A stretch of 43,003 nt of DNA from a virus. Its lineage: Duplodnaviria; Heunggongvirae; Uroviricota; Caudoviricetes. Under the pieces are notes generated by a model that made no database searches, was not told the origin of the DNA, and was given only the letters and a program-made list of their open reading frames with translations. Below are positions 2,321 to 17,490 of this stretch, piece after piece; positions within the stretch are counted from its first letter, which is position 1, and each line of letters begins with the position of its first letter. A program made the position numbers and the translations under genes. Where the stretch lies: the IMG/VR virus record IMGVR_UViG_641522624_000003, one strand, 5' to 3'.

Positions 2321-4762
2321 TTAAAAATCAGCCTGACTCGGGATCAGTTTTTGCCAGATAGCTGAAACGTATTTTGCCTGGTAACGAGCGTCATCAAGTG
2401 CATTATGGCGCTCACCTTCGAATGGAATAGCCGTTCTGGCATCGAAGTCTATGGCTTTCCCCAGCTCAACGATTGTGCGTACATCGCGATCGTTGTAGTA
2501 ACGCCACGGGCAGGGGATCCCCTGCCGTTCGTATGAACGGCGCAAAATCGTGTTGTCGAAGTTGGCTCCATTTCCCCAAACCTGAACAAAAAATTCACCG
2601 GAGTTTTCGTCGATAAATTCCCGCAATTGTAACAGTGCATCATCTAACGGGATTTCATCGGTCATAATGGCAGATTGCGCTTCGCGTGATTGCTTAAGCC
2701 ACCATTTAATGGTGTCCCGATCAATGACTCCGCCAGCAGTTTCCAGATCGATAGTCTTACTAAATTCCGGTCCCATATCTCCGGTTTGCGGATCGAAAAA
2801 TATTGCACCTATTGAGATGATCGGGGCATCAGGATTTTTTCCCATGGTTTCAAGGTCGATCATTAGATGGTCACACGTCCTGCTGGTGGATGTGATTTCG
2901 TGATGACCGTTCACCTTAATTGGGTGATCTGCCGTCTCGCCAGTTTTATTATCGCTGGCGTGATGCTGATTGCCGCCAGGGTTCTCCTTGTGTGGATGTT
3001 CAGCGCCTTCCATTTCCTCCGGATCATTTTCCTGAACTTCAACCTGATTCTCTTCATCGAATGTTTCCTGGTATGTTGCGTCGCCCATCACCGCGCCACA
3101 ATCAGGGCAGTTGCCGCCACCGCTCTGACCGCAGGCGGTGCAGACTTTTTCCGGTTCCTGTTGCGCTACTGGTTCGGATTGTTTCGTTTCTGGCTCGTTT
3201 TGTAACGCATTTGGGCTGTTTTGTTCCGCTTTTTGGTCGTTCCGTTCCGATTCATGCTGGTTCTGGTTCACAGAATCGCGAGTCTGGATCCCCTTGACCC
3301 ATTTCGGATCATTAGGGTCGCTAATCCCCTCAACAAATTCACCACGCGATACAGCAAGTAACTTATCGGCGTCAGGCTGGCTGATATTGGCTGCCTGCAT
3401 AATTTTGTTTACTTCGTCAGCGGTGACTTTTACTTGGTTAGCGGAACTCACCTGCGACTGAGCATCCAGCGACTGCGCGTTCTGGCCATGTTCAGTTGTA
3501 TCCGGTTCCATTGTTTCAGTTGTTGCCTGTTCACCTGCCATTGCGTCAGATGGTTGTGGTTTTTCTTCTTCTGTTTCACGCTCAGTAACCACCTCGCGGT
3601 TAATTTCTTCCAGGATATCTTTTTCCGGCGTATGCCGGGCAGCTGTGAGAGTTTCCTTGCTGGGGTTCTCGTGATCAGTTTCCGTCAAATAGGCGTTGAT
3701 ATACCCCTGAAGGCGTCCCGGGTAGTGATAAAATTCAGGGTGTGCGCTTCGGATAAGTGCAAAAATAGCGGCGCGGGAATAGTCCAGAATACCCGGGGTT
3801 GCACGAAGTGCTGCGGACCATTCTTTGAACGGACTTTCTTTGTTCAGGACTACTTCTTTTGCGCGACGATAAACGCTGCCCGGAATTTCATAAATATTAA
3901 AATCCATCGGAAGTGTGGCTGCTGCAATCTCCACATCCAGTGTGTCGAGGGTGTGTACTAAATTCGGATTGCGATCGGTTTTGTTCCCACCGCCAGCATT
4001 AGCACCGGAAGCCGTGCGGGTGATGCGTGAAACACGATTTCCTTTCATCCACTCTTTTGTCAGCAGACCCCGATCAGTGTAGTCAGCGTCCAGGTATGCT
4101 TCGAAAAAAGCAGTTATTAGTCCCAGGTCTGAATTACCAGGATTAGGGAAAACTTTGTCAGTGTCACGAACCAGTTTGTGGAGGTCGCGAATCTCCAGCG
4201 AGTCGAGCAGACTGGTTTTATGCGAAATAGCCAGGGCAGTAACAGCCGGTAGTTCTTCAGCCCGTGCAATGTGTAATGCCTGGAGTTCGTCGCGTGAAAC
4301 GTGCGTTACTGGTTTTTCGCTGCCGTGTTGAGCAAGCCAACGAATGGGCAGTTCCTGACCGGAGACAGGCAGAAGCATGCTCTCCTCAATCTCAGTCATG
4401 TCTTCGCCGTTGATGTTGGTATTGTCAGTGCTGGCTGGTTTGTCCTGAACAGAGGGGGAAGGGCCGATAAATGTCATTGTGATGCCATCTTTCCCGCCTT
4501 TTTCATAGCGGTTGCAGAATTCAGTATCAAACACGCCTTCTGGCGGAAGGTCGTCAACAACGGGCAAATTGACGCGGACGGGTTTTTTAAAGTCGTCTTC
4601 ATCATAATCGTTGTCATCCATTGCGGTAATGCAGCGGGAGATTGCAACAGATAATTTTTTTGCTGTAGTCCAGTAAAAACCACCTTTAATTCCCAGGCGT
4701 TTTCTTACTTTGTCATTTTTTGCTTCGCAATATAGTGCAAATTCTTCTTTATCAGTGCTCAT
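2321..4762 (-). CDS. Large phage exonuclease: RecE-N-terminal-like region, central Cys4 zinc ribbon, C-terminal DnaQ-like (DEDDh) 3'-5' exonuclease domain
   Basis: 813-aa ORF. N-terminal segment ([10 protein letters not shown]...[21 protein letters not shown]...) matches my memory of the RecE N-terminal region; [16 protein letters not shown] zinc ribbon; C-terminal [10 protein letters not shown]...WGNGANFD...[10 protein letters not shown] looks like the DnaQ Exo I/II/III motifs. Confidence 0.6.
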
Positions 4763-15072: not shown

Positions 15073-15438
15073 ATGACTGAACGCATAGAATTTGTTTTGC
15101 CTTACCCGCCGACGGTGAATACCTACTGGCGACGTCATGGCAATACGTATTTCATCTCGGAAGCCGGAAAGCGTTATCGCCGTGATGTGGCGCTAATTGT
15201 TCGCCAGCAGCGGCTGAAATTAAGCCTGTCCGGAAGGCTGGCGATAAAGATTATTGCAGAGCCACCGGATAAGCGCCGCCGCGACCTGGACAATATCCTG
15301 AAGGCACCACTGGATGCGCTGACGCATGCCGGACTACTTATAGACGACGAGCAGTTTGATGAAATCAATATTGTGCGCGGTCAGCTCGTTCCTGGTGGGC
15401 GGCTGGGGATAAAAATCACAGAACTGGAGTGCGCATGA
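15073..15438 (+). CDS. rusA: Holliday-junction resolvase RusA
   Basis: 121-aa ORF with the RusA-family pattern (LPYPPTVNTYWR...DKRRRDLDNILKAPLDALTHAGL..DDEQ). Confidence 0.8.
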   Translation: MTERIEFVLPYPPTVNTYWRRHGNTYFISEAGKRYRRDVALIVRQQRLKLSLSGRLAIKIIAEPPDKRRRDLDNILKAPLDALTHAGLLIDDEQFDEINIVRGQLVPGGRLGIKITELECA

Positions 15439-16124
15439 ATAACCAGTATTTACAGTTTGTGCGTGAGCAGCTCATTATCGCCACCGCTGATTTGAGTGGG
15501 GCAACAAAAGGTCAGCTTGAAGCCTGGCAAGAGAATGCCATGTTCGATACAGGGCGTTACAGGCGAAAAAAAATCCGGTACCGCGATGAAGTGACTGGAA
15601 AAATGATAACGCGGGATAATCCACCAATCCCGGGAAAGCAATCGCTGGCGAAGGGGACGTCAATTCCTCTGGTCAGTCCGGTTGAGTTTTCGACATCATC
15701 GTGGCGGCGGGCTGTTCTGTCTCTTGAAGAACATCATAAAGCCTGGTTGTTGTGGTGTTACAGCGGGAGTATTTGTTGGGAATATCAGATCGCGATAACA
15801 CAGTGGGCGTGGAATGAATTTAATACTCAATCCGGTACCAGAAAAATTGCAGGGAAAACGCAGGAACGCCTGAAAAAATTAATCTGGCTGGCGGCGCAGG
15901 CAGTAAAAGCAGAACTTTTTGGTGGGGAAGGTTATGAATACCAGGAGCTGGCATTACTGGCGGGAGTGACAACTAAAAACTGGTCCAAAACATTTACTCG
16001 TCACTGGGTTGCAATGAAACACATTTTTCACCGACTTGATAGTGAGGCTTTATTGTTTGTAATGAGAACACGTTCAAAACAAAAGGCGGCATTTTCAAAG
16101 CAAAGTATTGCAAAAGTAGATTGA
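15429..16124 (+). CDS. Late-gene antiterminator Q-like protein
   Basis: 231-aa ORF immediately upstream of a consensus-like promoter, a short terminator and the lysis cassette; position and size typical of lambdoid Q. Confidence 0.6.
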   Translation: MRMNNQYLQFVREQLIIATADLSGATKGQLEAWQENAMFDTGRYRRKKIRYRDEVTGKMITRDNPPIPGKQSLAKGTSIPLVSPVEFSTSSWRRAVLSLEEHHKAWLLWCYSGSICWEYQIAITQWAWNEFNTQSGTRKIAGKTQERLKKLIWLAAQAVKAELFGGEGYEYQELALLAGVTTKNWSKTFTRHWVAMKHIFHRLDSEALLFVMRTRSKQKAAFSKQSIAKVD

Positions 16125-16136
16125 AAGGCATATATT
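16108..16136 (+). promoter_or_regulatory. PR'-like late promoter (-35 TTGCAA, 17-bp spacer, -10 TATATT)
   Basis: Hexamers at 16108-16113 and 16131-16136, overlapping the 3' end of the Q gene. Confidence 0.5.
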
Positions 16137-16187
16137 TCATGCAAATCTGATATTTTGCCGATTTTGTACGTGATGGCAAAAGCAAAC

Positions 16188-16214
16188 AAAACCCGCCCAC
16201 AAGCGGGTTTTTTG
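16188..16214 (+). terminator. tR'-like terminator downstream of the late promoter
   Basis: Hairpin ACCCGC-CCACAA-GCGGGT followed by TTTTTTG, about 50 nt downstream of the predicted start. Confidence 0.5.
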
Positions 16215-16280
16215 TGCCACTTATCTCGGATAGACATGGTGAATGCGCTAGTGGAGGAGATAAGGGTGATTTTTGAATGC

Positions 16281-16309
16281 TTGCAACATTGATTTCGTAA
16301 CGTTATTAT
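16281..16309 (+). promoter_or_regulatory. Sigma70-like promoter upstream of the tRNA array (-35 TTGCAA, 17-bp spacer, -10 TATTAT)
   Basis: Hexamers at 16281-16286 and 16304-16309; tRNA 1 begins about 10 nt downstream. Confidence 0.5.
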
Positions 16310-16318
16310 CCTGCGCCC

Positions 16319-16394
16319 GGCCCTTTAGCTCAGTGGTGAGAGCGAGCGACTCATAATCGCCAGGTCGCTGGTTCAAATCCAGCAAGGGCCACCA
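16319..16394 (+). tRNA. tRNA with anticodon CAU (Met or lysidine-dependent Ile2)
   Basis: 76-nt cloverleaf: acceptor GGCCCTT/AAGGGCC, D stem GCTC/GAGC, anticodon loop CTCATAA, T-loop GCTGG-TTCAAAT-CCAGC, 3' ACCA. Confidence 0.7.
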
Positions 16395-16395
16395 G

Positions 16396-16472
16396 CCGCC
16401 ACTAGCTCATCAGGAAAGAGCGTCAACCCTTTAAGTTGAGTGTGCGAGGTTCGAGTCCCCGGTGGCGGTCCA
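16396..16472 (+). tRNA. tRNA with atypical anticodon loop CCTTTAA (C at position 33); nominal anticodon UUU, Arg(UCU)-like backbone; isotype uncertain
   Basis: 77-nt cloverleaf: acceptor CCGCCAC/GTGGCGG, D stem GCTC/GAGC, anticodon stem TCAAC/GTTGA, T-loop CGAGG-TTCGAGT-CCCCG, 3' TCCA. Confidence 0.5.
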
Positions 16473-16474
16473 GT

Positions 16475-16550
<76 letters not shown>

Positions 16551-16553
16551 TAT

Positions 16554-16628
<75 letters not shown>

Positions 16629-16634
16629 GTTAGA

Positions 16635-16680
16635 GTCTTTCAGTCTGCGATGATGGGAAATCCCGGAGTGACTGAAAGAC
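16635..16680. repeat. Perfect 11-bp inverted repeat (GTCTTTCAGTC / GACTGAAAGAC) with 24-nt loop
   Basis: Read directly, immediately 3' of the tRNA array. Confidence 0.5.
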
Positions 16681-16687
16681 GTTTAAG

Positions 16688-16759
16688 TTATGAATGATCG
16701 CTTTTTTTGCAAAATTGCTGTGCAGAAATACTAACCTTCGGGCAGGCGATCATTCATAA
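16688..16759. repeat. Perfect 14-bp inverted repeat (TTATGAATGATCGC / GCGATCATTCATAA) separated by 44 nt
   Basis: Read directly; lies in the ORF-free region between the tRNAs and the holin gene. Confidence 0.5.
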
Positions 16760-16833
16760 GCACTCTGCTTTTATTCCGATTAACTGTGGGTGGTTTGTTG
16801 GATAGAGTGCTTCCCTTACTGTATATATCGTTT

Positions 16834-16858
16834 CGCCCGCTTTTGCGGGTTTTTCTTT
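16834..16858 (+). terminator. Rho-independent terminator-like hairpin upstream of the holin gene
   Basis: CCCGC-TTTT-GCGGG followed by TTTTTCTTTT. Confidence 0.5.
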
Positions 16859-16919
16859 TCAAATCCCTTTCATTTCTCAGTGTAAAACTACGCCATCCGT
16901 TATTTGCGGAGGTGAGGCT

Positions 16920-17135
16920 ATGAAATCCATGGACAAAATTTCAACGGGCATTGCCTACGGCACCTCCGCAGGCAGTGCTGGCTACTGGTTTTTACAGTGG
17001 CTTGATCAGGTCAGTCCGTCACAGTGGGCTGCGATTGGTGTACTGGGGAGTCTGGTTCTGGGCTTCCTGACTTATCTGACAAATCTGTACTTCAAAATCA
17101 GAGAAGACAAGCGTAAGGCTGCACGGGGAGAGTAA
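16920..17135 (+). CDS. Holin (class II, S21/EssD-like)
   Basis: 71-aa [30 protein letters not shown]... with two TM segments and a charged C-terminus, recalled as S21-type holin; GGAGG SD 7 nt upstream. Confidence 0.8.
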
Positions 17136-17139
17136 TTCA

Positions 17140-17490
17140 ATGACTCAAAACTATGAACTGATTGTGAAAGGGATCCGCAATTTTGAGAATAAAGTTACGG
17201 TAACTTTAGCGTTACGGGACAAAAAACGCTTTGACGGCGAAATTTTTGACCTGGACATCTCGCTGGACCGTGTTGAAGGTGCCGCGCTGGAGTTTTATGA
17301 GGCAGCAGCCAGAAGGAGCATCAGACAGGTCTTCCTGGATGTTGCTGCCGGGTTATGTGAAGGGGATGAGCAGTCGCCGGAAAAGCGCCCCGTAATTTTA
17401 GAGGCGCAGAATGTGTGGATAACCTACAAAGGAAAGCTACCAGGAAGAATTACTGGTTCTCTGAAGACTCCTCCGGAATCACAACCTTAA
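17140..17490 (+). CDS. YdfR-like protein of unknown function, embedded between holin and endolysin
   Basis: 116-aa ORF starting 5 nt after the holin stop; arrangement recalled from Qin (essQ-ydfR-rrrQ). Confidence 0.4.
   Translation: MTQNYELIVKGIRNFENKVTVTLALRDKKRFDGEIFDLDISLDRVEGAALEFYEAAARRSIRQVFLDVAAGLCEGDEQSPEKRPVILEAQNVWITYKGKLPGRITGSLKTPPESQP

Follow-up and report, generated by a model that had tools for sequence, protein, structure and literature searches.

The stretch of DNA analyzed here (the window, 43,003 nt; all coordinates refer to it) is a complete lambdoid prophage. Its plus strand carries a DUF968 gene and then RusA upstream of the gene for the antiterminator Q (15429–16124; Pfam PF06323, E 9e-92), followed by four tRNA genes (16319–16628), the gene for a phage-21-type (S21) holin (16920–17135; Pfam PF04971, E 1.4e-35), and, after the holin, DUF1327, lysozyme, and Rz. 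The tRNA genes are detected by ARAGORN, by Rfam (tRNA scores of 44–74 bits), and by PGAP; the order given by ARAGORN is a CAT-anticodon tRNA, Lys-TTT, Thr-TGT, and Gly-TCC. The CAT tRNA is called Met by ARAGORN and Ile by PGAP in an identical prophage, and among the four the Lys tRNA (16396–16472) scores lowest in Rfam, at 44 bits. The analysis concerns the gap between tRNA-Gly and the holin gene, 16629–16919.

At the left end of the window, tRNA-Ser(CGA) (892–981) adjoins a minus-strand integrase-sized ORF (1034–2059), which is probably where the prophage is attached. Directly 3' of the Q gene, a short unit at 16140–16217 ends in a hairpin with a T-run (16182–16217). It weakly resembles the Salmonella prophage RNAs IsrK and IsrJ (22.7 and 24.5 bits, respectively, below threshold), while its counterpart in phage HK639 scores 34.6 bits against isrJ (threshold 37); the unit is probably a short pR'-tR' transcript, an analogue of the lambda 6S RNA. 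The holin gene carries the dual-start motif MKSM, typical of S21. Its Shine–Dalgarno region (UGCGGAGGUG, 16905–16914) and codons 14–17 (16961–16970) form a perfect 10-bp inverted repeat; a hairpin of these arms, sequestering the Shine–Dalgarno sequence, was set aside, being absent from the minimum-energy fold of 16895–16980.

A promoter scan predicts a sigma-70-type promoter on the plus strand at 16281–16309 (TTGCAA, a 17-nt spacer, TATTAT), separated from the first tRNA by 9 GC-rich nucleotides. In related loci the hexamers are kept (TTGCAx; TATTAT, TATCAT, or TAATAT) despite divergence of the spacer and of the sequence further upstream; the predicted promoter corresponds in position to ‘pT’ annotated in the Stx phage 933W. 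A second promoter-like site (16542–16569, 10/12), at the tRNA-Thr/tRNA-Gly junction, was dismissed as a tRNA by-product, because it is built on the tRNA D-loop TATAAT. The typical array in relatives consists of a CAT-anticodon tRNA, a variable tRNA, Thr(TGT), and Gly(TCC). Slots 1, 3, and 4 are stable among relatives; the second slot is hypervariable (loci L004–L123), being occupied by Lys(TTT), Arg(TCT), Phe(AAA or GAA), a TTA-anticodon ‘stop’ tRNA, or one of several tRNAs with an anticodon that ARAGORN cannot assign.

The first-pass annotation described the interval as flanked by tRNAs and a holin gene, containing two perfect inverted repeats and a terminator-like hairpin, and having no ORF of 60 aa or more; this description stands in full. 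The last of the four tRNAs ends at 16628 and the holin gene starts at 16920. The arms of the 11-bp repeat with a 24-nt loop (IR1, 16635–16645 and 16670–16680) and of the 14-bp repeat with a 44-nt spacer (IR2, 16688–16701 and 16746–16759) are each 100% complementary. A third perfect inverted repeat, missed earlier, has 9-bp arms at 16758–16766 and 16804–16812 and represents the conserved stem P2 described below. When the interval 16629–16919 is shuffled with preservation of dinucleotides (2000 shuffles; perfect repeats with a loop of 3–60 nt), a repeat of at least 11 bp appears in seven shuffles, whereas no shuffle (0/2000) contains one of at least 14 bp; repeats of this length are not expected by chance. 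The terminator-like hairpin has its stem at 16835–16850 (GCCCGC-TTTT-GCGGGT; six pairs, five of them G-C, and a 4-nt loop), followed by TTTTCTTTTC. It is a predicted intrinsic terminator of the plus strand (16835–16859; GCCCGC-UUUU-GCGGGU and a U-run), with equivalent hairpins in relatives. The longest ORFs encode 45 aa on the plus strand (16786–16923) and 43 aa on the minus strand (16731–16862).

The region is modular, as the variants show, and comprises module A, module B with its two domains, a variable linker, and the intrinsic terminator, all on the plus strand. Module A (16635–16680) corresponds to IR1 and begins 6 nt after the CCA end of tRNA-Gly; its 11-bp stem, which extends to 16630–16686, gives a predicted hairpin of approximately 50 nt (−23.2 kcal/mol, z −4.5). 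The stem encloses a conserved asymmetric internal loop (UGC-GAUGAU/GGAGU) and a GGG-NNNN-CCC tip hairpin. The internal loop is nearly invariant across 23 variants and, read by eye as C-GAU-GA-U-GGG/CCC-G-GA-G, fits the k-turn consensus; the sole computed hint of a k-turn is given by C/D-box snoRNA models, which match the element at chance level (E 1.6 and 8.4). In some relatives module A is absent, and there module B directly follows the tRNA.

Module B (16688–16810) is a predicted two-domain RNA of approximately 125 nt. Domain 1 (16688–16759) is closed by stem P1, i.e., IR2 (16688–16701 with 16746–16759), and contains the hairpin P1a (16704–16711 with 16721–16728; UUUUUGCA/UGCAGAAA, loop AAAUUGCUG) and a small CC-UUCG-GG hairpin (16735–16741); hand inspection finds no conserved promoter inside P1 on either strand. 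Domain 2 (16760–16810) is closed by stem P2 (16760–16767 with 16803–16810), inside which lie P2a (16775–16779 with 16798–16802) and P2b (16782–16785 with 16792–16795). Here, the 3' strands are nearly invariant and the 5' strands are variable (helix 5). The 3' strands of P2a and P2b form a near-invariant G/U-rich stretch, GGGUGGUUUGUUGGAU (16788–16803); judging by the alignments, the sequence constraint on this strand exceeds what pairing requires. A role as a CsrA sponge was considered and rejected, the GGA motifs not being conserved in the alignments of HK639-type variants.

The 291-base region is present at 95% identity or higher in 517 of 5426 complete E. coli genomes (539 at any identity). 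All of these matches are chromosomal, and among the matches listed nothing is annotated under the element. Four sequenced coliphages carry the region at 98–100% identity, and the Q-to-lysis interval of phage HK639 contains a copy that is 77% identical. A 19-mer common to the window and HK639 retrieves at least 120 IMG/VR viral contigs with 69 distinct variants; independently, a P2-end pattern, searched in species-representative genomes, finds the element in Escherichia, Shigella, Enterobacter (two species), Citrobacter, Yokenella, and Phytobacter. The conservation of P1a is partly imposed, since the first of these searches demanded an exact 19-mer within it; independent confirmation is limited to the 7 species-level genomes obtained via the P2 pattern. 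A Met/Ile-X-Thr-Gly tRNA array lies just 5' of the element, on the same strand, at most of the 124 loci surveyed. The element is either unannotated or mis-annotated on the wrong strand, the minus-strand 43-aa ORF being called a ‘hypothetical protein’ in two phage records, including vB_EcoS-689R5.

Several loci depart from this layout. HK639 retains only a remnant of tRNA-Gly, yet the element is intact. The copy in Salmonella Fels-1 is broken, consisting of module A, an inserted small-ORF moron, and a decayed P1; the covariance model of module A (R2) finds module A in both HK639 and Fels-1. In Enterobacter quasihormaechei (L134, 35–109) the P2 domain stands alone approximately 20 nt after a terminator (model match of 37.6 bits), and its P2 stem, read by eye, is compensated differently (GCACAUUA/UAGUGUGC); this lone P2 suggests that each domain of module B can exist as a module of its own. 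One lineage (L063, 4560–5040, minus strand) carries an insertion of approximately 500 bp that contains a small membrane-protein-like ORF. It takes the place of the 3' end portion of tRNA-Thr, the whole of tRNA-Gly, module A, and some of the 5' arm of P1, leaving the remainder of module B with its terminator as well as an STnc100-like unit.

The RNAalifold consensus for module B (34 distinct variants) consists of exactly the helices described above for its two domains, with 41 pairs, of which 10 show compensatory double changes. Standard pairs account for 97.6% of the cells, compared with 92.5% in column-preserving shuffles (0/500 are as high), and the paired cells fall to 33–49% when the partner is slid by 1–3 columns. 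Double changes are seen in 79 cells, compared with 30 expected; two of the five shuffle measures, the number of pairs with a double change and the number of pair types, are not significant. The number of independent compensatory events is modest, because the homologues represent few deep lineages. P1 (helix 1) has 14 pairs, five of them changed on both sides, with 97.7% of cells paired; its 16 distinct arm combinations keep 11–14 of the 14 pairs. In P2 (helix 4), four of the eight pairs are changed on both sides, five arm combinations pair at 8/8, and one more at 7/8. Module A has 15 pairs, four with compensatory changes. All predicted stems are kept through compensatory changes in the alignments.

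Wobble pairs are distributed in the same sense. G-U cells outnumber A-C cells by 170 to 11 in module B (approximately 15:1) and by 40 to 4 in module A (10:1), and hence the plus strand, which runs with the tRNAs and the late operon, is the functional RNA strand. The plus-strand fold (−80.9 kcal/mol, z −5.5) reproduces the consensus structure; the minus strand reaches −61.3 kcal/mol. Compensatory and wobble pairing above controls, with G-U tolerated and A-C not, is the pattern of structured RNAs in general, and by these measures the element is a conserved, tightly folded non-coding RNA. One of the suggestions of the first-pass annotation, a highly structured transcript or sRNA, is in this way backed by conservation, covariation, and folding energy. 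What it had named as refuting was a lack of conservation of the inverted repeats across related phages together with the lack of a stable predicted structure; as conservation and structure are both found, the structured-RNA reading is favored.

The best reading of the sequence is that the element is a prophage-borne structured RNA derived from a tRNA operon. It lies between the last tRNA and the terminator, on the same strand and with a promoter upstream, which by position and motifs is the arrangement of a 3'ETS-type RNA. We hold with moderate confidence that 16629–16859 encodes a plus-strand structured non-coding RNA, the 3' trailer of an autonomous tRNA unit, which would act in trans after processing. 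The main competitor, which we consider unlikely but take seriously, is a purely cis-acting structure that aids 3' processing or stability of the tRNA precursor, e.g., as an exonuclease barrier or a set of RNase E/III entry sites, or strengthens the insulation of the holin gene. Such a role agrees with a location immediately after the last tRNA and ahead of the terminator, and with a long near-perfect hairpin that starts 6 nt after the CCA end; moreover, phage 933W shows that a terminator is required between a tRNA unit and the gene after it. However, 933W and other tRNA-carrying phages do without a trailer, with the terminator 13 nt past the last tRNA. Loops and single-stranded segments (AAAUUGCUG, GGGUGGUUUGUUGGAU) are more conserved than a generic barrier needs. 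The element is intact next to the tRNA-Gly remnant of HK639 and persists where an insertion has replaced the tRNAs (L063), and the P2 domain can occur alone (L134). A function of its own is favored because 933W-type units dispense with the trailer, because the loops and the G/U-rich strand are conserved beyond the needs of pairing, because the element outlasts decay or replacement of the adjacent tRNA, and because of the lone P2 domain.

A cis-regulatory lysis leader, i.e., a riboswitch, thermometer, or attenuator gating passage of the terminator into the holin gene, would also suit the architecture, in which 25 nt separate the conserved fold from an intrinsic terminator and the holin gene comes next. 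This reading is very unlikely. The S21 holin follows in 70 loci, where its start lies 210–218 nt past a common internal landmark; elsewhere the next gene is one of several unrelated holins, a small ORF, or an IS element. In HK639, an STnc100 copy with its own terminator (52.6 bits, threshold 47) intervenes before the lysis genes, so that a separate sRNA gene and further terminators can separate the element from them. Because the downstream gene varies and STnc100 intervenes in HK639, the element travels with the tRNA unit and independently of the lysis genes. Under a strict rule, 75 of the 104 related loci have a terminator no more than 110 nt from P2, and approximately 24 more have a weakened form of the same stem; these terminators belong to several unrelated sequence families, so that their position is conserved and their sequence is not. 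Terminator sequence, linker, and downstream gene thus all vary among homologues, the terminator and linker being conserved neither in sequence nor in spacing, which does not fit a riboswitch or attenuator. Furthermore, no alternative pairing of P2 with the terminator is visible, no riboswitch family of Rfam is matched, and Q-modified polymerase, as is established for lambda, ignores terminators anyway.

The terminator stem itself is polymorphic at its 3' edge among relatives (GCGGGTTTTT, GCGGTTTTTT, or GCGTTTTTTT), the stem being shortened from six to four or three pairs and the U-run lengthened. This polymorphism might adjust how much transcription continues into the holin gene, or it might be no more than neutral decay.

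The first-pass annotation had also proposed two DNA-level readings, namely, an empty moron site left by loss or exchange of cargo and a binding site for a DNA-binding protein. Perfect palindromes are indeed present, and the Q-to-lysis interval is a known moron hotspot that carries stxAB in 933W (PMC4104026). The positional analogy to Stx phages drawn there also holds, 933W having pT, ileZ-argN-argO, a terminator, stxAB, and later S; this phage, however, lacks the element. Nevertheless, palindromic operators or a recombination scar are highly improbable explanations. The arms change by compensatory substitutions with a strand-specific bias toward G-U over A-C (170 vs. 11; 40 vs. 4), which DNA palindromes do not show, and the folding energies of the strands differ by 20 kcal/mol. 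The interval is filled by an element that is conserved across genera in constant architecture and spacing, and cargo usually inserts beyond it, not in its place: extra cargo (STnc100 in HK639, small ORFs, IS elements) is usually found downstream of the element's terminator, and only in a minority of loci does it interrupt the element (an IS in L076, the moron ORF in Fels-1). A unit running from promoter to terminator is itself a classical ‘moron’, so that the interval is to be regarded as occupied, not empty.

Least credible is the possibility of one or more small proteins (a 33-aa ORF at 16596–16697, a 32-aa ORF at 16707–16805, and the 43-aa minus-strand ORF at 16731–16862): the ORFs exist, and the last is annotated in vB_EcoS-689R5, but one of them starts inside a tRNA gene, start-site context and frames are not conserved, substitutions follow base pairing and not codons, and indels or early stops break the ORFs in HK639-type variants, with both cutting short the 32-aa plus-strand ORF in HK639 itself.

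Returning to the trans-acting trailer, we propose a mechanism whose steps draw on established knowledge of tRNA operon processing and Q antitermination. The unit would be a tRNA/ncRNA ‘moron’ nested in the late-operon leader and composed of the promoter, four tRNAs, module A, module B, and the terminator. In the lysogen, it would be transcribed from its own promoter and end at the terminator 16835–16859, so that the holin gene is kept silent; upon induction, Q-modified RNA polymerase coming from pR' would pass both tR' and the terminator of the element. Processing of the tRNAs, with an RNase E cut just 3' of tRNA-Gly, would release a stable trailer RNA of approximately 230 nt. This RNA may then act in trans, the best candidate for contact being the G/U-rich GGGUGGUUUGUUGGAU, which could pair with a C/A-rich RNA or bind a protein. 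Within the 43-kb prophage, a search for sites complementary to the G/U-rich or the P1a segment returns only the segments' own sites.

More tentatively, it is possible that modules A and B form an undescribed family of phage ‘tRNA-companion’ RNAs, a temperate counterpart of the T4 species 1 and 2 RNAs that would be constitutively expressed and reprogram host RNA metabolism. The k-turn-like hairpin and the G/U-rich segment would be the parts acting on host RNA metabolism, and the RNA could serve, e.g., as a GcvB-like regulator of C/A-rich mRNAs, a sponge, or a decoy for a tRNA-directed defense nuclease.

Approximately one in ten complete E. coli genomes, as well as prophages of at least six other enterobacterial genera, carry the element. 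If its product is a stable RNA, it joins the growing number of sRNAs with which prophages, from the ‘moron’ region between Q and lysis genes, rewire host regulation, would be the first such RNA built into a phage tRNA operon, and offers a tractable lambdoid model for asking why companion RNAs accompany phage tRNA clusters, a question that goes back to the T4 species 1 and 2 RNAs. Comparisons of phage late regions should not treat this interval as a vacant insertion site.

Within the scope of Rfam 15, the element matches no catalogued RNA family. A cmscan of 15900–17300 (E ≤ 1) gives no match inside 16629–16919, and a scan of 16625–16870 (E ≤ 10) gives only chance-level matches of 10–18 bits, compared with gathering scores of 37–99; the HK639 homologue, like the window, yields nothing meaningful. 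AgvB (RF02702), AsxR (RF02703), STnc100 (RF02076), Esr41 (RF02676), GcvB, riboswitches, and ribozymes were rejected, all being below the gathering threshold. Identity with PasA–D was rejected as well: a blastn comparison (word size 7) of 16101–16960 with the PasA, PasB, PasC, and PasD loci of EPEC E2348/69, taken at their published coordinates (PMC8550237 supplements), gives chance matches of 11–34 nt (E ≥ 0.16). A full-text literature search for the conserved sequence strings of the element found no paper, and a search for prophage tRNA 3'ETS sRNAs found nothing specific.

The Q-to-lysis niche of lambdoid prophages holds many sRNA genes ending in intrinsic terminators (PMC4104026; bioRxiv 10.64898/2026.05.13.724894). 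The element shares this niche, between antiterminator Q and the lysis genes, with STnc100/PasD, AgvB/AsxR, PasA/PasC, and IsrK/IsrJ. AgvB, AsxR, and PasA are short (51–84 nt) and antisense or convergent to the late operon; in contrast, the phage trailer is co-oriented with the late operon and fused to a tRNA array. In HK639 (L001) the element lies immediately upstream of the STnc100 copy (2754–2959, 52.6 bits, with its own terminator), in a Q-to-lysis interval of approximately 950 bp that has four annotated terminators and no gene. Fels-1 (L138) contains three STnc100 copies (1406–1619, 1820–1942, and 2943–3161; 59–138 bits), each with its own terminator, and the Q-to-lysis intervals of both phages look like arrays of non-coding RNA genes.

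The tRNA unit of 933W resembles that of the window phage in following Q, pR', and tR' and in having its own promoter, a CAT-anticodon tRNA in the first position, and its own terminator. It differs in that the terminator stands 13 nt past the last tRNA, with no structured trailer between them; after the terminator, 933W carries stxAB and other cargo, whereas the window phage directly continues with the holin gene.

The rnaD and rnaC genes of T4 (species 2 and species 1; 119 and 139 nt, respectively) are likewise located directly 3' of the last phage tRNA on the same strand; we know of no function for these RNAs to date. Their 3' ends are tRNA-like (e.g., the T-arm-like GGGUUCGAAUCCC in rnaC) and not an intrinsic terminator, and T4 is a virulent phage, whereas the window phage is a temperate lambdoid one. 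Homology with rnaC or rnaD was rejected: there is a short look-alike, GAUGG..CCCUGAGU, yet no model match, and rnaD folds into no similar hairpin. With the covariance models of modules A and B, a search of the T4 locus (E ≤ 10) gives only a chance-level match of module A (11.4 bits, E 0.84) inside tRNA genes.

A close parallel in arrangement is 3'ETS-leuZ of the E. coli glyW-cysT-leuZ operon, which, according to work attributed to Lalaouna and colleagues in 2015, is reportedly an Hfq-bound sponge for RyhB and RybB. Both RNAs lie between the last tRNA of a polycistronic operon and an intrinsic terminator, and the phage trailer, like 3'ETS-leuZ, would be a by-product of tRNA processing. There is no sequence similarity between them. 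While 3'ETS-leuZ has approximately 50 nt and consists of hardly more than its terminator hairpin, the trailer is phage-borne, has approximately 230 nt, and places three conserved stems/domains upstream of an exchangeable terminator.
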